DNA from: a virus
Taxonomy: Duplodnaviria > Caudoviricetes
DNA: 46,925 nt
Reading direction: 5' to 3' (one strand)
Virus record (IMG/VR): IMGVR_UViG_3300033067_001736
Location: 1 to 46,925 of that record
A program made the position numbers and the translations under genes. The notes under the pieces were generated by a model. The model saw only the letters and a list, made by a program, of their open reading frames with translations. It was not told the DNA's origin and searched no databases. This document shows positions 3,001-46,444 of this stretch, one piece after another. How positions within the stretch are numbered: position 1 is the first letter of the stretch; the number at the start of each line of letters is the position of its first letter.

Positions 3001-6000
3001 AGGATTTCTTCCTAATGTATCTGATGTAATGTATGTCCCTTCTCATTTGATTCCTCAAAAAGGTCTTGATTTTGACGTAGATAAAGAATATACGTTATTG
3101 TCTCACTTAGTAATAGATAACGATGGTAAAATAAGAAAAATCTCTTATGACTTCATTAGTTCTTTAGAAAAAGAGAATCAACAATACAGAGAACAAGTAA
3201 AAGCTAATTTAGAGGCTTCTAATGCTATTAAAGCTTATAATGAGTCTTTGTATGAGAAAGCTAAAAATGAAGAGAATAAGACTAAGGCAAGAGCTTTATA
3301 CAATGAACTTAAAGTTAATGCAAGTGAAAGAAAGGAAAGGCTTAATGATGTTGCATTAATTAGAGAAAGAATAAACAATAACCTTTCTATTATAAAAGAG
3401 TATGGTCAAAAAGCAAGAGAAAATGAACTTGTAAATATTTATACTGCTGTTCTTGGACACTCTTCAATGAGATCAAGAGTAGCACAAACTGTAAATACTT
3501 CTCTTGCTAAAGCAAGTTCAGAAGCTATTAATGGTAATGTAAAAAATAAAAAACTTATTTCTTCATTATTATCTACTTATCAAAGAAGTATTGCAGGTGC
3601 AGGTAATATTGGTAAAGTAGCCATTGGTACATATAGTAATTTCATGGTTACATTATCTTTAATGCAACAAAATCCTCAAGAATTTTCTTTAGGTGAAGAT
3701 ATTGTTTTTGGATATTTAGTAAATGAAAATGGTAAATTAGCACCATTAACTTCTCTTCAAGAAAATAAACCCGGTAAAAAGAATGAAAAAAGAAGATTGT
3801 CAGTAATAGGTATGGAAAAACAAAATACTGCTACAGATAATCAAAAGCTTAAAATTCTTGATAGTGTTGGTATAAATGAGTTTACTATTGGTGTAGATGC
3901 AATGATGTATGCTTTGGGTATTGATACTGTACATGTGGATTCTATTAATCAAGACTTAATGGCATCTCACTTGTTACTTTCTCAACCAATTATCAAAGAG
4001 TATTCTGATAAGATGAGAAATTCAGGAGCAGTATCTACTGCTTATGATCCTGATCTTTCTAATAAAATATTAGAAGAACTACAAGAAAAATATGGATTTG
4101 TACTTTTTGATACAGATCCTAAATTACTAACAGGTCAAAACCTTTTTAATAATTTAAATTCTGATTCTTTATCAAATCCTAATCTTAATGCTGCTGTTCT
4201 AAGTTTCTTTTTGAAAATGAATATTGAATCAGCTAAGATGAATAGTTTTATTGGAATACTAAATGTTCAGTCTAAAGGGGCAGGTACTACTTATTTAGAA
4301 TTACAAGATAAAACCGAAGCATTTTTAGAGTTATCTGAAGATTATGAAAAAGGAGCATATATTTCTTTACTTGGTGATTTTAAACATGAAAGTGATGAAG
4401 ACTTTGAAAATAAAGAAGGTTATGTATTAGTAGAGAATTCAAATGGAATGATGTTCTTACCTACTACAATACAAGGTAAACTACTTATTGAAAGTTTAAA
4501 TTCTGCAAATAAATTGTGGAGTCAATTCTACCCTTTTAAAAATGAAACATTTAAGAGAGTAATGAGACAGACTTTGAATACTATGCCAAAAACAAGTGGT
4601 AAAAAACAAAGACTTCAGAACAAAACTTTTGTATTGAATGAAATGATCAAATACTTTTATGGTTCTCAAGAACTTGGTTTTGAAATTAATAACCAAGAAA
4701 GATTGGAATTACTTGTTGAAAAAGAAGGTAATCAATCTTTAGCCGGGTATTTAAAAACTCAAATGGATAAGTATCCTGCTTTTGCGTCTAACAGGTTTAT
4801 TTCAATTTTAGAACCAATAGTAAATAACTCAAGTAAATATTCATTGGTCCATACTAATAATATAAATGATTTAACTCCATTAGAAGAAGATGCTATTACA
4901 AATGGTATTTATGCTTTATTGAATAGTCCTATCAAATTAGATAATAGAAATGGTAAACCTTATAATACAAATAATTTAGTAGCAGATTTGATCAAGTATA
5001 ACTATTTATTTAATGGTAATAAATATTCTCCTACAGGATTTTCTAAGTATATACCTTTAAATATTGCAAAGGCAATTGGTATTACTGAAGAAACAAGAAA
5101 ATTTAATGCTGCATTAAAAGTTGATGATTTAGATACTTTAAACAAAATATTTGATTTTGATGCTAATGGGGTAACTTCTTTTACAAGGCAATTTGCACAA
5201 AACAATCCTGATAAAGTAAAAGGTGTTTCTCAAAGAGGAATAGCTTCTGCTACAACTACTACACAAATAATAAACGGTGTTTCAATGATAATACCGGAAT
5301 CATTTACTGTTGCTGAAACAGATTCTTTTGCTTACTTTCTTAGTATCAAATTAACTGAAACCCCTGTTAATGGTAAGCCTTATGCCCTTTATGAGTATAA
5401 TTTTGCAACTCGTCAATATGAAAGAATTAGGGTAAAAGGTCAACAAACTATTAGTGCTTATTCAGCAGATAATATTGTGAAGATTCCATCAAAGAATCCT
5501 GTACCACAAACAAGTGTAAAGTTTACAAATTTGGAAACTGCACTTAGTACTATTGCAAATGGTAAACTTGTACCTGATTTCTATAAGGAATTAGCAACAC
5601 AACTACTTCCATTTATTGATCCTAAAACTTCAATTACATATACTACTTTTGAAAATAAAAATAACAATGGAAAGTACCTTCCATCTTCTAATGAAATACA
5701 GATTGCTGATCATTTATCTTCTTCTCAATTTAGAGATGAACATGCAGTAACTATTCTTAAAGAGTATGCTCACTCTATTACAGCAAGAGTAATAAATAAA
5801 TATTTTGTTAGTAATACATTATCTTCAGGTGTAATAACATATACTTTAAAAGATCTTGATAATGTCTCAATGACACCTCAAGAAATTAAAGAATATAACA
5901 TTATGAAAAGATTAAATGCTCTTCATAATGAAGCTAAAAAAGCACTTGATCCTTCAGGAGAATTTCTTAAAAACTTTGAAGATACAAATACATTAAATAG

Positions 6001-17224: not shown

Positions 17225-17328
17225 AGGTTAGGACAGGACTCGAACCTGTAACTTCTTTATCATAAAGAGTGCCATTAGCCGTTATCTCAACCTTGAGGGT
17301 GCTGCGTTACCAATTACGCCACCTAACC
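17225..17328 (-). tRNA. tRNA-like element with intact acceptor, D and T arms but no canonical anticodon arm
   Basis: GGTTAGG/CCTAACC acceptor; GCGT-AATTGGTA-ACGC D arm; ACAGG-TTCGAGT-CCTGT T arm; about 55-nt irregular centre. Confidence 0.7.
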
Positions 17329-38126: not shown

Positions 38127-38291
38127 AAGTTTTAAGTTTTAAAGTCATCTAATAAATCCCATATTAACCTTATTATTAATAAAATTAATAATGAAATGAG
38201 TGTAATTATTAATATTGCAAAGAATATAGTGATTATTGTTATTATAATTTTCACTTTAGTTTTTTTAGTTATTAAATATTGAAGAATGATC

Positions 38292-38628
38292 AATTCTCCT
38301 GCACAATGTTGTTATTTACCCAAATCTCGAATTGGATTTGCTTATGTTTAAGTATTACAACTACGACAACACATTACTATGTTGAAAGCATTAGATATGG
38401 GAATCTAAACGATATTACCTTTCAAACCCATGTTTAAAGAATACACTAACTATATTCTTCAAATGCTGCCACCACATATTTTACTTAGATTATCACTAAT
38501 ATTCCTACTGTTACTACGATGTACAGCTAAATGTACATTGGCCCTCGTAAGTAGTGCTATGTCTAATATTAGTATTTTCAAGTATGCTTTACAATTCTCT
38601 ACCAATATCTGCGGAAGATAGCAGAACT
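38292..38628 (-). ncRNA. Candidate multi-stem structured RNA (about 335 nt)
   Basis: No - strand ORF; nested stems ACTAATATT/AATATTAGT, ATGTACA/TGTACAT, CAAATC/GATTTG; ends partly complementary. Confidence 0.45.
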
Positions 38629-38722
38629 CTTTTTTATTATTGGTATGAATTATTACTAAAACCTTTTGATTGTATAAAATTATATTATTCTAATTATTTA
38701 ATATAATAATATACACTAATAG

Positions 38723-38782
38723 TTTATCTTATAAGATTTGAACTTACCCACATTAATTAGATGTGTACCAAATAAAAGATAA
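38723..38782 (-). tRNA. D-armless mini tRNA-like element (60 nt)
   Basis: TTATCTT/AAGATAA acceptor; CACAT-CTAATTA-ATGTG arm; GTAAG-TTCAAAT-CTTAT T arm; 10-nt unpaired D replacement. Confidence 0.5.
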
Positions 38783-38961
38783 TTACTACTAGTTATCAAA
38801 AGTAACCAGCTATGTTTGGTTAAAGATTTTAGACAGTTATTATTCTTACACTATAAACTGTCAAATTTGTAGCCTATAAATAGGTATAAAAAGTAAATAA
38901 AATAACAGGCTTTGTTTATTACTTTTTATTTTAACTATACTTAACATTTTTTTGCATATTT

Positions 38962-39543
38962 TTAAAAATCATTAGTTACTCCATTATATGCTAAATGAGA
39001 ATAGTCAACGTATTTGGATTTACGATATTTATCAAGAACTTTATAATTTTTTTTAATAAATTGTTTAAATTCATCTAATAAGTTTTCAACAATATATAAT
39101 TGATGATTACAAGTTCCTGTTTTTTTACACCAATTACCACAACTTTCTTTAAAATAACCAGTAGTTTTCATTATATGATTATACCAATAACCTTGTTCTT
39201 CTTTATACGGAGCAATAGGTAAACGATCTGGAGTTGGTATAAATTCACAAAATTTCCATTCAATAAATCTACAACATGCACTATAACAATCAACCTTAAA
39301 AGGAATACATATTCTATATAAAACGCTAATCTTTTTATAATCTAATTTATCTTGAATTACTTTAAGTCTTTTTTTTTCTAATAAAGCTAAATGTTCTTCA
39401 GCAATAAGTTTACTATGTTGTTTTCTATTTAAAGAAATAAAACCTTTTTTTCTAAGTGAGTAACAAGCTTCACTAAGATCAAATTTAGATATATGATGAT
39501 TTTCTGGTAGATAAAAACTTACAGATGTTACGTTAGGTTTCAT
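38962..39543 (-). CDS. Hypothetical protein
   Basis: Likely start MKPNV at 39543. Confidence 0.6.
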   Translation of the reverse strand: MKPNVTSVSFYLPENHHISKFDLSEACYSLRKKGFISLNRKQHSKLIAEEHLALLEKKRLKVIQDKLDYKKISVLYRICIPFKVDCYSACCRFIEWKFCEFIPTPDRLPIAPYKEEQGYWYNHIMKTTGYFKESCGNWCKKTGTCNHQLYIVENLLDEFKQFIKKNYKVLDKYRKSKYVDYSHLAYNGVTNDF

Positions 39544-39839
39544 ATTTATTTGTTTAAAATAAAAATAATAGGCTTTGTTTACCACTGCAATCATAACTAC
39601 TCAAGGATTAACCCGTGAACTCAATCACTTTTCGGTAAGGCCGTCTATCTTGTAGATATTAAATATGCTAGTATCCTGTTATAGGTTCTTTCAGAGTGTT
39701 TAGTAACACACAAACATCTATTTAAGGAATCCCACCTTTTTCACTATAATTGTATAGATACGCTTTCTCGATTGTATTCTACACCAAACTTATTTAGTAG
39801 TGTTGCTGTTCATAAACTAGCTTAATTAGTATTTTATAA

Positions 39840-40067
39840 AATCACTTGTCCAAATTCTAGTGGAATATATTTTATAACTCTAAGTTTCACCTGGTTATGT
39901 ATAAATCAATGTTTATACTTTCAGAAACGTAAGTGAGCATTACTTAATATACCTCTACAATAAACACAACTGCTAGTACAGTTTATAACAAACCAGTGGA
40001 ACTTCCTATGCAACATGGTTTTAATGCTTTCAGGATTATGTTATTGTTTATCTTCAAGCAAGTGATT
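39840..40067 (-). ncRNA. Structured RNA scaffold, copy 1 of 2
   Basis: Three blocks shared with 42344-42573; AATCACTTG/CAAGTGATT closing stem; covarying internal stems. Confidence 0.75.
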
Positions 40068-40422
40068 ATTTCTTTATATATCTTTCAATAAACCATTCTT
40101 TTGCATCAGGAGCTTCAGTAGTTAAACTATTGAATTTTGCTTCACAATCTTTTTGATATTCATTAAGTATGTAAAAAACCTCTTTTAAACTAAATACTTC
40201 TGTTTTTGATATTAGTTCTTCAGGAACAAATTTAATATTGTTATTTCTTACTTCAATCATTCCTACGGCATAATTATGCGCTCCCTTACAAATAATTTGT
40301 ATATCTTTTTTTAGATCCTCTATTGAATCTTTTTCTGTATAATGTTTAAGAGGTGATTTAGCTATCATAGCATTCAATGCTGAACTAGCATAAAAATCAT
40401 AAATTCTTTCTTCAGTTACCAT
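40066..40422 (-). CDS. Hypothetical protein
   Basis: 118 aa ORF. Confidence 0.65.
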   Translation of the reverse strand: MVTEERIYDFYASSALNAMIAKSPLKHYTEKDSIEDLKKDIQIICKGAHNYAVGMIEVRNNNIKFVPEELISKTEVFSLKEVFYILNEYQKDCEAKFNSLTTEAPDAKEWFIERYIKK

Positions 40423-40438
40423 TGTTTTTTATTTAATG

Positions 40439-40663
40439 TTATAAACTATCTACAAAAGACCATCTATCCATTGCTTCTTCTAATGTATTATGGTATGTAG
40501 TTTTTTTATTTTTTCTTTTTACTGTATAGTAATCATAATTACACGATTTAAAATCTTCATAGCAAGTACAATCTTTCATACATTGACATCCTTTAAATGT
40601 TGTTTTACCTGTATGATGATACATCACATTTTTTTCTGTTTCATGTATTATTTTCTTTGCCAT
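40439..40663 (-). CDS. Small Cys-rich hypothetical protein
   Basis: 74 aa ORF with CxC..CxC. Confidence 0.65.
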   Translation of the reverse strand: MAKKIIHETEKNVMYHHTGKTTFKGCQCMKDCTCYEDFKSCNYDYYTVKRKNKKTTYHNTLEEAMDRWSFVDSL

Positions 40664-40795
40664 GATTATTATTTAATGTTAGTTAATAAAAAAAGAAGAT
40701 TGCAATACAAAGATTGCAACCTTCAAAATGTATCACTTTTAGTACAGCTTATACGATGCTGATTTGGCACTAAAAGAGTGTTTACAAATGTAGTG

Positions 40796-40867
40796 TAATC
40801 CATAGAAGAGTCGAACTTCTGTTTCATGTTTAAAAAGACATGTGTCCTACCACTAGACGAATGGATC
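40796..40867 (-). tRNA. tRNA with 8-nt anticodon loop (CUUUUUAA); identity ambiguous (Lys-like anticodon, Glu-like D arm)
   Basis: GATCCAT/ATGGATT acceptor; GTCT-AGTGGTA-GGAC D arm; CATGT/ACATG stem; AGAAG-TTCGACT-CTTCT T arm. Confidence 0.8.
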
Positions 40868-41072
40868 AGTTTGGAGATAATTACTTTAAGGCTTTTCATT
40901 ATCTCCTGTATATTTCTTATTTTATTATTTTAACCCAAATAAAGCATTTACTATCGCTAGAAAGGGGAATAAGTTTTAAGATTAACTTTCATAACTCTCC
41001 GATCTTATTTAACTACTTATTTTAAGGTGTGTAGTATTCGTCAGATAATGTTTATAACACCTGCCTATTTTA

Positions 41073-41204
41073 TAAATGGGGTGTAAGAATCGAACTTACA
41101 CAAGTACCTATACTAATTTTTATAATTACTACTGCTGTGTTACAAGCAATTATTCATTATTATTAGTTTATGGAATCGAACCGCTCTTGTCCTTTCCCCA
41201 TTTA
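41073..41204 (-). ncRNA. tRNA-like element with two T-loop motifs and no D or anticodon arm
   Basis: TAAATGGGG/CCCCATTTA closing stem; TGTAAG-TTCGATT-CTTACA 3' T arm; second GGTTCGATTCC near the 5' end. Confidence 0.55.
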
Positions 41205-41212
41205 ATATATCT

Positions 41213-41533
41213 TTAATGGTCTCCCATATCAGGAAATACATGATCTTCTTCTAAGTCTTGAAAGTGTTTAAAAGGACTTTCAAAGTTATTAGGTTCTTGA
41301 AATGTTCTTCCTGATAATCCAAATGGTTCTTTTTTATTGTGAAGTGGATTATCAACAATAGTCACATCAATAGTGTTTGCTGTAAATAATCTTAATACTT
41401 CACCAGTAAGTTCATACTCACCATTTGCTCTTTTCTTATCAAGTATTTTAGCAAATAACTGTTCTTCTTTTTCAGGTGTCAAACCTAAAGATGATACGTG
41501 CATTGCTGCTTCTAATGCTGATTTGAATTTCAT
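41213..41533 (-). CDS. Hypothetical protein
   Basis: 106 aa ORF. Confidence 0.7.
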   Translation of the reverse strand: MKFKSALEAAMHVSSLGLTPEKEEQLFAKILDKKRANGEYELTGEVLRLFTANTIDVTIVDNPLHNKKEPFGLSGRTFQEPNNFESPFKHFQDLEEDHVFPDMGDH

Positions 41534-41552
41534 TTTAGGTTTAGTTAATTGA

Positions 41553-41798
41553 TTATTCTTCTTGATAGTCTGGTTCTACAAAATTAGATTCATCTCTGTA
41601 GTACTCACACATATTACATTGACAATCTTCTTTGAGATCATCATGTAATATTATTTCAAGTTGCTTTAATTGAAATTCAATTGCCTCATCATAGTTTTCG
41701 ATAGGCAATATTTGACCAAAATTAATTTGATCATCAGCACCTTGACGAATAAATGATTTAATAAGGTTTACAAGATTGTCTTTATCTACTGTTATCAT
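41553..41798 (-). CDS. Small acidic hypothetical protein with CxCxxC
   Basis: 81 aa ORF. Confidence 0.65.
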   Translation of the reverse strand: MITVDKDNLVNLIKSFIRQGADDQINFGQILPIENYDEAIEFQLKQLEIILHDDLKEDCQCNMCEYYRDESNFVEPDYQEE

Positions 41799-41831
41799 TG
41801 TTTTGAGTTTAAATGATGATTACTACAATTA

Positions 41832-42047
41832 TAATGCACCTCACTTGTAACAGTTTACATCGAACATTAGTGTTCTCCTCTAGTTACAAGTGTCTCATAT
41901 TTGGGAACTGATTCACTTCATGCTTGATAAACCAAAGCATTGGCTGAAAATCAGGTGGTTTCATATCTTAATAAAGAAGTCACTTTATAACGTATTATAA
42001 ATGTGTTTCCGTTCAGAATACTTATGCCACATGAGAATGGTGCATTA
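41832..42047 (-). ncRNA. Candidate multi-stem structured RNA
   Basis: TAATGCACC/GGTGCATTA closing stem; CACTTGTAAC/GTTACAAGTG; TCTCAT/ATGAGA. Confidence 0.6.
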
Positions 42048-42117
42048 AATTACCTATTGATATGCCAATAGGATTATAAGATTTTAATCATTGAGTGTAC
42101 AGAAAGATATGTTTTAA

Positions 42118-42332
42118 AAATATAATAGTGTGTTGTTACACCAAAAGGCTAGATAGTATCATCAGTATTTACGACCCTACTCTACCTAGATAATAGGTAA
42201 TTAACCTATCTAATTATTGTATTTATCTCCCGTAAGCTAAGTTCTGTCCTTTTATCAGACTACTTTCATACTAGGAGTACTCACCTACTCTTTAAATGGT
42301 GGCTACCTCCAAGCCTACATTCTATTATATTT
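42118..42332 (-). ncRNA. 23S rRNA GTPase-associated-centre (H43-H44, uL11 site) mimic with 145-nt insertion
   Basis: AGAATGTAGGCTTGGAGGTAGCCACCATTTAAAGAGT-[insert]-GTGTAACAACACACT aligns to E. coli 23S 1054-1105; 11-bp closing stem. Confidence 0.85.
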
Positions 42333-42343
42333 ATTTTTTTAAA

Positions 42344-42573
42344 AATCACTTGTCCAAATTCTAGTGGAACAACTCTTTCTTGTAGTTTTATCTCGTAGAT
42401 TAGTCAGCACTCAATGGTGACTTCATACAATAATCGCAGTTACCTTTACAATAAAACACAACTGCTAGTACAGTTTATACATTCCCAATTCGGTCAGGAT
42501 ATACCTGTTCAGCTAACCTTAGTCATAAGCCATTTTATTGGGATTGTACTGTTTTATCTTCAAGCAAGTGATT
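42344..42573 (-). ncRNA. Structured RNA scaffold, copy 2 of 2
   Basis: See 39840-40067. Confidence 0.75.
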
Positions 42574-42583
42574 TGTTTATTAG

Positions 42584-42675
42584 AAGATGGGTTGCAGATA
42601 CCTTGTTTTTATTTTTATCAAACTGCTAAGTCTAGCCTTATATGAAACCTTGTTTCAATGCTTCCTACCCATCTT
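42584..42675 (-). ncRNA. Candidate small structured RNA
   Basis: AAGATGGGT/ACCCATCTT closing stem. Confidence 0.4.
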
Positions 42676-42684
42676 TTTTCTATT

Positions 42685-42825
42685 AGTTAAGTCAATTGTA
42701 ATAGGTCTACTCTTTATGATGAGGTCATACTCACCCTTTTAATAAGTCACCTACTAGCCGGCAGTAATTCCCCCTTTGAAAAATTGTTATTAAAGAGCCG
42801 GGGGAAATATTACAATTGATTAACT
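42685..42825 (-). ncRNA. Candidate structured RNA
   Basis: TCAATTGTAATA/TATTACAATTGA 12-bp stem extended by AGTTAA/TTAACT; internal TTCCCCC and GGGGGAA. Confidence 0.55.
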
Positions 42826-42836
42826 TTTAACTGATT

Positions 42837-43187
42837 CTATAGTTCATTGTTTACATGTAAAGATGGCATAACAATTACTTCAGGAAGATCCAAAGATGTT
42901 TGAATACCTTGTAGGTTATTATACTTTGTAGTTACATTGTGCATTGCAATGTTTCTCAACGCATATAACAAAGCATCCTTATGTGCATTGAAATGTTGTT
43001 GATTTGTAGTTGTGTAAGTTGCAGTAATCTTTCTACCATCATCAAATATATCACAATTTAATACACTAAATTGTTTTTGATTAAATGGATTGCTATTAAC
43101 GGCTACCTTAAAGGTAAATACTTGTGTACCATTAATTTTAATGGTTTTGATTCCAAACATTGTTGTTTTAATTGGTACGTTGATCAT
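42837..43187 (-). CDS. Hypothetical early protein
   Basis: 116 aa ORF. Confidence 0.65.
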   Translation of the reverse strand: MINVPIKTTMFGIKTIKINGTQVFTFKVAVNSNPFNQKQFSVLNCDIFDDGRKITATYTTTNQQHFNAHKDALLYALRNIAMHNVTTKYNNLQGIQTSLDLPEVIVMPSLHVNNEL

Positions 43188-43251
43188 TTTGTGTAGTTTA
43201 GTTATGAGTTAATATGTAGGGGAATTCCAACCCTTTATTCTGTTGCCTCTT

Positions 43252-43488
43252 TTATTGAGGTCTTTCAAAGGTTTCTACTAATACACCAAGTTTACTAATA
43301 GGTTTGATTTTTGAAATTAAATCTATTGTTTTACCTGTAACATTGTAACAGTAGATTAATCTTTTACCTTTAAATGGAATTGGTCCTGATTTAATAGAAC
43401 CTGATTCCTTTATGGCTTGGATTATATCCTTTGTGAAAGTATCTAACTTTTTGTTAGAGTTACTTTCTATAGTAAATTTAACATTCAT
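43252..43488 (-). CDS. Ribosomal protein uS10/NusE-like protein lacking the ribosome-binding loop
   Basis: VKFTIES...KKLD....IIQAIKESGS..SGPIPF-KG-KRLI......KTIDLI aligns to uS10 IRIRLKAFDHRLIDQ..EIVETAKRTGAQVRGPIPL...RLVDI..PTEKTVDAL; ATG at 43488. Confidence 0.75.
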   Translation of the reverse strand: MNVKFTIESNSNKKLDTFTKDIIQAIKESGSIKSGPIPFKGKRLIYCYNVTGKTIDLISKIKPISKLGVLVETFERPQ

Positions 43489-43819
43489 CAAAGATTGAGA
43501 GCAGGTATTATAAAGATAAAAGAGTTGTATCCCTTTATTTCAAGTACTATATCATCTTTTACCATCCTGCTCTACTCTTCAAGGTTGCGATCCTTGTTAT
43601 GTCTGATAGCCATAAATTAAGGTAAAGGCTATATAAATAATGTTGTGGTTTTGAGAGGTTTTGTGAAAGTGGGAATATACCGTGTGGGTGGTCTTTACTA
43701 CTCTTTCACACTCATTTTTACACAAAAATAAAATTCAAAACCCTTGCTACTATTACGTTTCAGCAATTTACCTTACTTTGAGAACCTTGGGGAATCCCGA
43801 AGGGCTGAATATAGTAGTG

Positions 43820-43848
43820 CAAGATTTAATAGTTGCTAAAATACAGTA
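43820..43848 (-). promoter_or_regulatory. 29-bp repeated motif, putative phage early promoter (copy 1)
   Basis: TACTGTATTTTAGCAACTATTAAATCTTG on the - strand, four near-identical intergenic copies. Confidence 0.65.
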
Positions 43849-43897: not shown

Positions 43898-43924
43898 TGG
43901 GGAGCATAAGTGAATATACTCCCC
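43898..43924 (-). terminator. Intrinsic terminator
   Basis: GGGGAG...CTCCCC stem with a T run on the - strand downstream of 43939. Confidence 0.65.
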
Positions 43925-43938
43925 GAAATGGCTCAAGC

Positions 43939-44511
43939 CTAGAAGATTACCTCTTCTTGTAGTTGGTCAACTACCTCTCCTGTAGAGGTATTAACCGATG
44001 GGAAATTATAAACTGCATCCGCAGTTCTAATATCCATGTCTGCCATGCCATCAGCATGGAAGAACAATCTACGAAAGAAATGGTTTCCGTTGTCATCAAG
44101 CAACGTGATGCCATCTTTATTCGTACACAACTGTCTAAGAGCGATATGCTCTTCAGTTGTAAGACCTTGCTTGATTGCAGAGTTATCTTCTGCTGTCAAG
44201 ATGGGTTTTGAAGAAAGAACTCTGTAAATACAAGCTTTTGGCTTGTTTTTCAGTAGAGCATTTACTTGCTCTACTGTAAGGTCACTTGGCAATTTGAGCC
44301 ATGCCACTCTGTTTTCTTCAGAGGTGTAAGGGGTTTCATCCCCGAATTCATCATCAGAAAATAGAGAGACTGACATACTATTCCCTGCTTTCACAGAGGG
44401 ATAGTACTTTGTTGTTGTCACAAGCTGACGAATCTCAGCCTGTAGTTTTCCGAATTCATTCTTGGCTACATTAGCACAAGAAATGTTGCCAAAGTTACGT
44501 TCCTGACGCAT
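43939..44511 (-). CDS. Hypothetical early protein
   Basis: 190 aa ORF between a promoter-like motif and a terminator; higher GC than neighbours. Confidence 0.8.
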   Translation of the reverse strand: MRQERNFGNISCANVAKNEFGKLQAEIRQLVTTTKYYPSVKAGNSMSVSLFSDDEFGDETPYTSEENRVAWLKLPSDLTVEQVNALLKNKPKACIYRVLSSKPILTAEDNSAIKQGLTTEEHIALRQLCTNKDGITLLDDNGNHFFRRLFFHADGMADMDIRTADAVYNFPSVNTSTGEVVDQLQEEVIF

Positions 44512-44563
44512 ATATGAGTAAATTTATGGTGACAAGAGAATAAGTGCTGTTTAGATAGCAGCA

Positions 44564-44592
44564 CAAAATTTAATAGTTGCTAGAATACAGTA
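44564..44592 (-). promoter_or_regulatory. 29-bp motif copy 2
   Basis: TACTGTATTCTAGCAACTATTAAATTTTG. Confidence 0.65.
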
Positions 44593-44603
44593 GTATTAGC
44601 TGA

Positions 44604-44735
44604 TTAAGCTGCAACCGTAGTTGCAACTTTAATCATTCTTTGACCAACATATACATAGCCTTCTTCAGGCTCTTGGTCAAATTTTATAAGATAGCTGCCT
44701 GTCAAGGCAGCAAAGAAAACGTATGCCTTTTTCAT
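44604..44735 (-). CDS. 43 aa early peptide (not in ORF track)
   Basis: MKKAYVFFAALTGSYLIKFDQEPEEGYVYVGQRMIKVATTVAA*, between motif copies 3 and 2. Confidence 0.55.
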   Translation of the reverse strand: MKKAYVFFAALTGSYLIKFDQEPEEGYVYVGQRMIKVATTVAA

Positions 44736-44770
44736 GATGAAAGGTGTTTAGTTAAGTGAATAGTTTATAG

Positions 44771-44799
44771 CAAGATTTAATAGTTGCTAAAATACAATA
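44771..44799 (-). promoter_or_regulatory. 29-bp motif copy 3
   Basis: TATTGTATTTTAGCAACTATTAAATCTTG. Confidence 0.65.
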
Positions 44800-44960
44800 G
44801 ACCGAGTAATATTAAGGTTTCCGTTTAACCCTAAAGCATAAAGCTTTTAGTCACTATCCCCTTAATATTAAAACATACATTTATTCTGTTGCCATGAAAA
44901 TGTATAAAACACCGAGTCTGATAATAGGATTCTTTTAATCTCTATCAATACTCATTAATA

Positions 44961-45290
44961 CTAACATCCTAGACTGTAACAGCCAATGATGTTTCCCTTT
45001 TCATCCCTTACTACTTCAGCAGGAACTAATAAGTCAGTTCTATCAGGCAATGCTGATTTAACTAATTGGGAAACAACATAGAATGTACCAAGTTGGTATT
45101 TAGCTAATCCTTCTGGATTGCCAAATACTGTCTTAGTTATTTCTACATCATTAACTGTAAATCCTGCATTGACAGTAGATGCCTTTAGTCTTATAAGATT
45201 TCCTGACGCAGGAATATCAAATAAGACAGCATTACTGTCTCTATCAAGGATTTGGACAGAATGTGGTGTCATGTTAAATATGTTTGTCAT
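44961..45290 (-). CDS. Conserved-looking phage hypothetical protein (NxTPH motif)
   Basis: NMTPH...IPASG...YVVSQLV....RTDLLVP..VVRDEKGNIIGC. Confidence 0.75.
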   Translation of the reverse strand: MTNIFNMTPHSVQILDRDSNAVLFDIPASGNLIRLKASTVNAGFTVNDVEITKTVFGNPEGLAKYQLGTFYVVSQLVKSALPDRTDLLVPAEVVRDEKGNIIGCYSLGC

Positions 45291-45697
45291 TAGACTTCAT
45301 AATTTAAACATGAGAAAATTACAATCAACATCAGGCCATGATTGTATTGGCTAAAACAAAAGTTACCACCTGCTTTCTTTAGACGAAGGTGATTGGCTAA
45401 CTGCATGTATTTAATCCTAAGCATTTCCGAGTTATTTCATCGGTGTCCTTACAAGGGTACATACAGTTATCGTGGTTTATTTGCAACTTATCCACGCTTT
45501 AAAAACTAAATGTGGCAGTAGTATGCTCCACATGTTGAATAGGTTGAATCCTATTGTCTCCTTTTTTGATAGAAAAGGTTAAACTTCCATGAGTCCTTAT
45601 ATCATGGTTTGTACTAGATACTCAATAGTTTCCTTACTTACATGGTTCTATGACCACAGCTATTGATACCCCATTTATAGTGATAGGATATCTAGTA

Positions 45698-45726
45698 CAA
45701 AATTTAATAGTTGCCAAAATACAGTA
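45698..45726 (-). promoter_or_regulatory. 29-bp motif copy 4
   Basis: TACTGTATTTTGGCAACTATTAAATTTTG. Confidence 0.65.
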
Positions 45727-45743
45727 ATCAATGTAATTAAAAA

Positions 45744-45768
45744 GAGAAAGGGGTTGCCCCCTTATCTC
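45744..45768 (-). terminator. Intrinsic terminator
   Basis: GAGAAAGGGG-TTGC-CCCCTTATCTC imperfect stem with a T run on the - strand. Confidence 0.55.
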
Positions 45769-45771
45769 ATG

Positions 45772-45948
45772 CTAAACTACCACTTTACACCTGTAGTGAA
45801 TTATCACTACAGTTATAAGTAGACATTCTCCTATGAATGCAGATAGCATCCATAGTGTAGTTATAATAGGTGTGACATCCGCACACCATACTAATACAGT
45901 CATTACCACTAATGGTAGTAATGACATTAATAAGATTAAGTTCTTCAT
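45772..45948 (-). CDS. Small two-TM membrane protein (not in ORF track)
   Basis: MKNLILLMSLLPLVVMTVLVWCADVTPIITTLWMLSAFIGECLLITVVIIHYRCKVVV*, 58 aa. Confidence 0.5.
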   Translation of the reverse strand: MKNLILLMSLLPLVVMTVLVWCADVTPIITTLWMLSAFIGECLLITVVIIHYRCKVVV

Positions 45949-46444
45949 GTGTTTATAGTTGAGGGTTATTAGTGAATCAAACAGTTATAGTAGTGTATTA
46001 TATAAATACCTAGCACACATACAATCTTCCTCATTCATTGATGAAGTCAATCACAAACATGCTAGGTACACTAACACTACCTCTCAGGAATAAATATCTT
46101 CCGGCTGGAAAAATACTTATTCTTGAGAAAAAAAGTGGATTTTCCCTTTTGATTTTCTTGTTTTAAAAACAAGGGGGGGTACTTTCCTTTTTTTTTCTTT
46201 CATAGGGGTTAATATATAATGGGGCATACATTTACAAATCCTACACAAAATTTTATAATAAAAAATTCTCACACTTTCATGTTCTACACAAAATTTATAA
46301 CACCCACTAAAATTTTTACCACTAAAAAATTTTTTTCACTATTTTCCTAATACTGTAAAAAACTTTAAAACTCTTGTTAATATACTAATAAGGCAAAAAC
46401 CTTTATAATACAATTGATAATCAATAAGTTAATCTAAAAACTTG

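Follow-up and report, generated by a model that had tools for sequence, protein, structure and literature searches.

Conserved RNA-like elements and small genes in a probable mosaic array of a likely Flavobacterium-type phage, among them an RNA resembling a 23S rRNA domain and a loop-less S10

Does a densely packed run of small genes and structured RNAs in a phage genome work as one coherent apparatus, or is it an assemblage of parts that act separately? The question is raised by the minus strand of the IMG/VR virus record IMGVR_UViG_3300033067_001736, whose whole stretch of 46,925 nucleotides (nt; 46.9 kb, about half complete) is referred to here as the window. A first-pass annotation had described positions 38290 to 43600 as an island of translation-apparatus mimics, comprising a loop-less uS10, a mimic of a 23S rRNA domain, three tRNA-like elements, a duplicated RNA scaffold and further self-closed modules, which would be processed from one polycistronic non-coding transcript and might form a coherent counter-defence or host-takeover system. 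Comparison with related loci (L numbers below) revealed that most of these parts are real, whereas the single-system reading found no support. With moderate confidence, and on the basis of comparative sequence analysis, we interpret the island as a mosaic in which conserved RNA-like elements are arrayed with small genes of a likely Flavobacterium-type phage, and whose parts would act separately as early-made helpers of phage gene expression. Its principal elements are the following:

42118..42332, minus strand: GTPase-associated centre (GAC) RNA, 215 nt, with the H43 half at 42323-42285, the H44 half at about 42143-42126 and an 11-bp closing helix
42343..42574, minus strand: family D copy 1, with a closing stem, two variable arms and two hairpins with pairing loops (predicted pseudoknot)
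39841..40066, minus strand: family D copy 2, a second copy of the same scaffold
38285..38667, minus strand: family O, with five near-invariant blocks and four arms of variable length
38794..39829, minus strand: M-N, a conserved RNA-like motif set with blocks in L120, L141 and L198
43252..43491, minus strand: loop-less uS10/NusE homolog of 79 amino acids (aa; Pfam PF00338, E 6.4e-05)

The likeness to the GAC of 23S rRNA (helices H43/H44, E. coli positions 1051-1108, the uL11 and thiostrepton site) exceeded shuffled controls, the window H43 score of 23 being reached by 0 of 200 shuffles. It also extends beyond the H43 hairpin initially proposed: this hairpin and the module annotated after it constitute a single RNA, because an H44 half 145 nt further on closes it, leaving an insert of about 145 nt after the A1088 equivalent between the two halves. 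A 27-base H43 pattern matched about 140 IMG/VR stretches, and 119 among the matches listed were analysed. Among 93 distinct H43 contexts including the window, two run on as rRNA and the others into unrelated sequence, and an H44-like half was located 45-357 nt downstream in 76 of 92 contexts, compared to 0 of 79 upstream controls. Leaving positions 1092 and 1099 free allowed 79 of the 92 to be parsed, the 13 misses comprising the two rRNAs, short flanks and variant halves.

The uL11-binding fold of this domain depends on the 1072/1092/1099 triple and on the U1060-A1088 pair. Across the 79 parsed elements, the triple occurred as C-C-G (51), U-U-A (21; the form of the window), U-U-G (5) and C-U-A (2), with positions 1072 and 1092 combined as C-C in 51, U-U in 26, C-U in two and U-C in none. 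Positions 1058 and 1080 were paired in all 79 by five pair types, the closing helix covaried freely, and A1057, G1059 and U1060 were invariant though they lie outside the search pattern; invariance of 1062-1088 and of several H44 positions provides no evidence, because the search patterns fixed them. The phage RNA thus shares with the ribosomal domain the H43 sequence and stems, the H44 hairpin, U1060, A1088 and the covarying triple, but it is free-standing on a short, variable closing helix without the H42 base, carries a 45-357-nt insert after 1088 and has an A where the ribosomal domain has U1101. When a similar pattern was matched to cellular sequences, by contrast, 120 of 120 matches were contiguous and carried the C/C-G triple, unlike the U/U-A triple of the window. 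The element does not belong to 23S rRNA itself, as its 145-nt insert breaks 1088-1091 and RF02541 had no match in the record. It is also present, unannotated, in the cultured phage GAP32, and matches are listed for XaC1 and fHe-Yen9-04. We regard it as a credible mimic of an rRNA domain, which may fold like the 58-nt uL11 domain off the ribosome and could either bind uL11 or draw off proteins that read this site, such as stress sensors, nucleases or factors. If it does bind uL11 or defence proteins off the ribosome, phages would mimic rRNA as well as tRNA; no description of rRNA mimicry by a phage RNA was found in the literature searched.

The duplicated RNA scaffold was likewise recovered, with copies at about 42343-42574 and 39841-40066. 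A family D 21-mer matched 32 viral stretches, giving 25 distinct full members besides the two of the window, and a relaxed pattern added variants. In the shared core, a closing stem is combined with two arms that are free in length and with a pair of small hairpins whose loops are complementary. Both loops were present in 35 of 37 contexts, reading CUAG/CUAG in 29 and UCAG/CUGA in six, with no discordant combination (0 of 35), and the closing stem, as read by eye, is altered on both sides in L163, L165, L172 and L200. The last of these, Cellulophaga phage phi17:2, is a divergent member in which the match between the loops is longer and the closing stem has changed. There is good comparative evidence, then, that family D is a pseudoknotted RNA. 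In phi17:2 the RNA is overlapped by the hypothetical gene gp172 (L200 3929-4119), which may not be a real protein gene. An interpretation of D as a double T-loop that binds the tRNA elbow, taken from PMC4810234, was discarded, since the two strands of the junction form a short stem that contains an internal loop, and they are not the same in phi17:2.

Family O was found in six IMG/VR stretches and in the cultured phage Lbo-JY46 (L201, PP438436), a carrier that is recorded with a cyanobacterial host. In L195, a tmRNA-like gene (3400-3760, minus strand; tag-like reading, T-arm end) that has no Rfam match at gathering score lies before tRNA-Leu and O. The M-N motif set is split in the window by a 663-bp piece (38899-39586) flanked by a direct repeat of about 20 bp, which carries one open reading frame (ORF):

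38962..39543, minus strand: inserted ORF, 193 aa from its likely start, without Pfam or PHROG match

The repeat is single and the M-N junction contiguous in L141, which identifies the 663-bp piece as an insertion into M-N. Weak DNA-level matches to the ORF occur in L129 and L135, together with a weak SWIM-like lead (Atlas best 0.84). A reading of M as an L1 stalk was dropped, as neither L120 nor L141 contains its two halves together. Each of the four sets, GAC, D, O and M-N, is a family with a fixed core and swappable arms. No description of the D, O, M-N or GAC RNAs or of a phage loop-less S10 was found in Rfam or the literature searched, and the motif words are absent from the readable supplements of PMC10690425, whose unsearched alignment archives and large PDFs may hold these families. 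D and O would accordingly add to the undescribed structured RNAs, and the presence of D, O and GAC in cultured phages (phi17:2/phi4:1, Lbo-JY46 and GAP32, respectively) makes them directly testable.

The loop-less uS10 was upheld by Pfam, a split alignment and Foldseek, which agree. The protein aligns to Bacteroidota S10 in two pieces, with the equivalent of E. coli residues 44-69, the 26-residue ribosome-anchoring loop, gone. Its AlphaFold2 model (pLDDT 90.7) has the S10 fold, and the best Foldseek match is the engineered NusE delta-loop 2kvq (TM 0.89, root-mean-square deviation 1.2). The same deletion recurs in at least 21 clusters defined at 50% identity (counted by eye among the rows listed), which form a natural phage family. 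In S10, R5, R9 and K11 face rRNA, while helix 1 forms the NusB face. The equivalents of all three basic residues are replaced in 12 of 12 loop-less members examined, so both the loop (as a 26-residue gap) and the basic rRNA-facing residues of a ribosomal S10 are absent from the window copy, whereas the D19 equivalent is kept in 12 of 12. V84 and M88 make up the NusG pocket according to PMC8116511; the V84 equivalent is hydrophobic in 12 of 12 members and the M88 equivalent is Met in seven of 12. PMC3177189 describes the S10 loop as dispensable for lambda antitermination.

It appears more likely that the window protein copies the transcription role of S10 rather than its ribosomal role. Such a protein would be unable to anchor in the 30S head, might bind NusB or NusG and could tune termination or transcription-translation coupling. 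It resembles the engineered NusE(S10) delta-loop (PDB 2KVQ, 3D3B, 3R2C) in fold, size and site of loop removal, but belongs to a natural phage family in which 26 residues including the R45 equivalent are gone and the basic residues of strand 1 are replaced. With the phage-encoded ribosomal proteins of Mizuno 2019 (PMC6375957) it has in common that a host ribosomal-protein gene became fixed in a phage; those proteins are exchangeable and enter ribosomes, in contrast to the window copy without a ribosome anchor, and uS10 is not mentioned in the main text of that article. A natural loop-less S10 would separate the transcription role from the ribosomal one, which until now only the engineered form had done. 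No cultured phage with a loop-less S10 was found, as the search gave three weak matches, and the one examined was a full-length S10. Several "phage" records from a single unverified series of submissions contain cellular genes (a full-length S10 at L331 1470-1770; short H43-matching records) and are likely host contamination. A 25-nt stretch over the S10 stop codon (43245-43269), a potential small hairpin, is conserved in L153 (8225-8256) and L155 (1297-1321).

Whether these elements form one system was addressed by their co-occurrence. The 27 records with D, drawn from 32 loci of which duplicates and one non-member were left out, did not contain the GAC pattern (0 of 27; 7 near complete), and the D pattern was present in 0 of 49 GAC records (50 of 119 loci supplied, one left out; 16 near complete), while loop-less S10 was found in 0 of 76 D or GAC records (23 near complete), the window record serving as positive control. 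Six metagenome loci with a loop-less S10, four short and two with long flanks, contained no GAC or D motif. Independent occurrence of the modules with no shared function had been proposed as one outcome that would speak against a coherent system, and the claim of such a system is weakened because GAC, D and uS10 do turn up independently in other records. The stronger version, in which one co-evolved counter-defence or takeover system lets S10 antiterminate a single transcript via a boxA in module B (see below) while the RNAs jointly counter translation-targeting defences, is unlikely in view of these counts and of the six S10 loci, even though all parts are co-oriented behind a promoter-like repeat. 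Most simply, small RNA genes would occupy a genomic niche that phages share and fill with varying contents; a tRNA or tmRNA call lies within 3-4 kb in 61 of 74 loci with GAC and in 18 of 31 with D.

Several observations weigh against such a mosaic, or against the structures and roles assigned to its parts. Most records in the co-occurrence counts are fragments, and exact patterns overlook divergent members: in L065/L170 a GAC RNA is preceded, at a distance of about 500 nt, by a D variant of a form missed by the exact D pattern. The order D-M-N-O is kept in L120 and partly in L141, L198 and L139. Some linkage of parts therefore exists, given the D-GAC pair of L065/L170 and the order in L120, and both also speak for one system. 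The covariation counts for GAC and D are uncorrected for relatedness, and the six UCAG/CUGA variants of D may represent two or three events. In O, compensatory change affected one of 42 predicted pairs among seven sequences, which renders its fold less secure. The window S10 has Ser at the M88 equivalent and its R45 equivalent is deleted, and the window contains no host-type boxA, a word taken from the rRNA spacers of Bacteroidota.

The remaining RNA-like candidates of the island are as follows:

40796..40867, minus strand: tRNA, cloverleaf without encoded CCA (Rfam 56.3 bits; ARAGORN tRNA-???(tttt))
41073..41204, minus strand: element H, with a tRNA-like 3' end (T-arm, acceptor-like stem) and a long inner arm (folding z-score -3.0)
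42685..42825, minus strand: module B, self-closed multibranch (z -3.4, ends chosen post hoc)
42584..42675, minus strand: module C, self-closed (z -2.4)
42006..42105, minus strand: module F, weak unsupported candidate (z -0.45)
41842..41955, minus strand: module G, a weak candidate with two hairpins (z -1.3, or -2.25 for the 3' hairpin by itself)

Of the three tRNA-like elements proposed, one is a clear tRNA, H is tRNA-like by eye and uncalled by ARAGORN and Rfam, and the third was not identified. Instead of seven bases, the anticodon loop of the tRNA has 8 nt with four central U, and its letters are unchanged in contigs of run X1, possibly the source sample. It could act as a nuclease-resistant or decoy lysine-type tRNA; the escape of a T5 tRNA-Lys variant from the PARIS nuclease, described in PMC11464382, is a lead only. 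Further tRNA genes with 8-nt anticodon loops were seen in phage tRNA clusters of L056, L061, L125 and L195 (aaaa, tcaa, tcga), with a tRNA-???(tcaa) in L125. An odd tRNA outside the island (17225-17328, minus strand) has a TCA-like anticodon region and a long inserted arm, and was missed by ARAGORN (Rfam 44.8 bits).

Positions 41832-42825 had been described as five tandem self-closed modules. A/T-rich linkers of about 8-12 bases do separate B, C, D copy 1, GAC and F, at which host nucleases might cut out the self-closed RNAs; six segments were counted rather than five (B, C, D copy 1, GAC, F and G), and F and G fold at chance level, as does module I (z +0.75). Hairpin K reached z -4.3, including a terminator and with ends picked afterwards. 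No homolog of B, F, G, I or K was detected by blast among the fetched loci. Pieces of C and H, in contrast, recur within other RNAs: the core of C lies in the variable stem of an O-family RNA in L195 (88% over 76 nt), the sole record found, and the 22-nt apical hairpin of H occurs in three viral contigs, one copy inside a 219-aa open frame, and sits inside the O arm in L120. Domains are thus shuffled between families, just as an ORF was inserted into M-N, and the island displays array evolution by shuffling of cores, arms and inserted ORFs.

These features bear on the possibility that the RNAs are structural or cis-acting, that is, protein-assembling scaffolds, or elements that stabilise or process nearby tRNAs and mRNAs, with the GAC core as a uL11-bound module for folding or protection of its insert. 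Accessory RNAs in phage tRNA clusters include T4 RNA C/D and GOLLD/ROOL, and GOLLD/ROOL-type RNAs have been proposed as protein-assembling scaffolds. We consider this alternative possible rather than probable: in GAC, D, O and M-N the cores are conserved and the long arms vary freely, C and the H hairpin have been exchanged among RNAs, and the usual place is among tRNA genes, all of which is consistent with it, but GAC keeps exposed 1067 and 1095 loops and tertiary positions (partly fixed by the pattern) beyond what a generic scaffold needs, and no fixed neighbour gene was seen. Under the mosaic reading, too, D, O and M-N would likely be protein-binding scaffolds with no shown link to translation.

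It is, by comparison, very improbable that most of the region consists of decayed or chance sequence surrounding a single tRNA. Local folding is indeed unremarkable (120-nt windows across 41832-42825 gave z +0.3 to -2.2 against shuffles), which means that the case for the island RNAs rests on comparison; F, G and I fold at chance and B, F, G, I and K are without homologs. Compensatory changes nevertheless refute decay or chance for GAC and D, and the invariant blocks of O and M-N recur across unrelated records including cultured phages. For these four families, the annotation as a dense array of conserved structured RNAs is supported, given the covariation seen in GAC and D and the blocks that stay invariant in O and M-N.

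As to mimicry of the translation apparatus, 17 conserved blocks were compared with E. coli and Flavobacteriaceae rRNA operons, and only the H43 half scored above shuffles. The designation as translation mimics is thus retained for the GAC RNA, the tRNA, uS10 and possibly H, while the other 16 blocks show no rRNA likeness above shuffles, which also disfavours one co-evolved system. The block test misses split or purely structural mimicry, because even the H44 half fails alone. At the level of sequence, D, O, M-N, C and the H hairpin were rejected as mimics of rRNA, and a likeness of G to E. coli 23S near position 720 was attributed to chance (score 29 versus a shuffle maximum of 25 in about 50 comparisons; absent against Flavobacterium). 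A tentative alternative is a modular arsenal of RNA decoys, made early, in which free ribosomal landmarks (the uL11 domain and odd tRNAs), pseudoknotted plug-in scaffolds and a transcription-only S10 would soak up stress sensors and translation-targeting defences; the island would then be an unusually full set, with D, O and M-N as undescribed decoy classes. Phage tRNA clusters with accessory RNAs offer a known parallel, as they share co-oriented, packed tRNA-like and structured RNA genes and small ORFs, with parts varying between phages. In contrast to them, the island has one tRNA, with an 8-nt loop, RNAs outside Rfam and a copy of an rRNA domain.

A Bacteroidota host is likely for the window phage, because its DNA polymerase is closest to that of Flavobacterium phage FpV4 (40% identity over 92%) and its S10-like protein is nearer to Flavobacterium S10 (28%) than to E. 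coli S10 (21%). Searches with the S10 protein or the DNA polymerase gave no close relatives in IMG/VR. Regarding Crassvirales membership, the polymerase is nearest FpV4, and two ORFs of the half genome are very large, one of which matches a family of virion structural proteins. The minus strand is also the location of the replication genes. Seven minus-strand ORFs occupy 2322 of the 5311 bases of the island, which argues against a purely non-coding region; within 41832-42825, the largest ORF is at most 71 aa. Besides the inserted ORF and uS10, these genes are:

42837..43187, minus strand: ORF of 116 aa, no Pfam match above cut-off and no PHROG match
41213..41798, minus strand: two ORFs of 81 and 106 aa without assigned function
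40066..40663, minus strand: two ORFs of 74 aa (PHROG match, phrog_34260, function unknown) and 118 aa

Rfam recognised only the tRNA in the island, and a scan of the window at E up to 10 matched no GOLLD, ROOL, raiA, ribozyme or other family. Six loci homologous to D, O or M-N gave tRNAs only at gathering score.

The organisation of transcription can be read from two kinds of signals:

43824-43848, 44568-44592, 44775-44799 and 45702-45726, minus strand: a 25-nt promoter-like motif repeated at these four sites (none in 100 shuffles)
40695..40724, minus strand: intrinsic-terminator-like hairpin, 12 bp plus T run, with hairpin K (40730-40786) ahead

The repeated promoter-like motifs reported upstream of the island were confirmed, with four copies where none is expected by chance, and three of them lie 20-100 nt past terminator-like hairpins. 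The motif is a putative promoter, and its copy at 43824-43848 likely the start of the first transcription unit. The proposed single polycistronic transcript is doubtful, because the terminator-like hairpin at 40724-40695, with its 12 bp and T run, divides the island; transcription might run from the repeat near 43848 to this hairpin, with a second unit behind. Behind the hairpin, no copy of the 25-nt motif was found. A sigma-70 promoter scan was uninformative (45 seen versus 54.6 expected), and no Bacteroidota-type -7 word with a following GC was found in the island.

For the unlikely case of one co-evolved system, a further feature in its favour is an E. coli-type boxA 9-mer at 42790-42798, the only one in the window, which lies in the open loop of module B, the first RNA module. 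However, boxA-like words occur at chance in the window (6 seen versus 7.0 expected) and show no enrichment in the DNA preceding GAC (9 in sense, 6 in antisense) or D (5 in sense, 3 in antisense). Antitermination of the array driven by boxA was rejected on this basis; relatives are without such a pairing.

The DNA upstream of the island (43900-46200, minus strand; coding and intergenic) folds far better than shuffles, with z down to -8.1 at 44201-44320, and a segment inside the S10 gene (43361-43480) reaches z -6.6, so that both exceed the RNA island itself.

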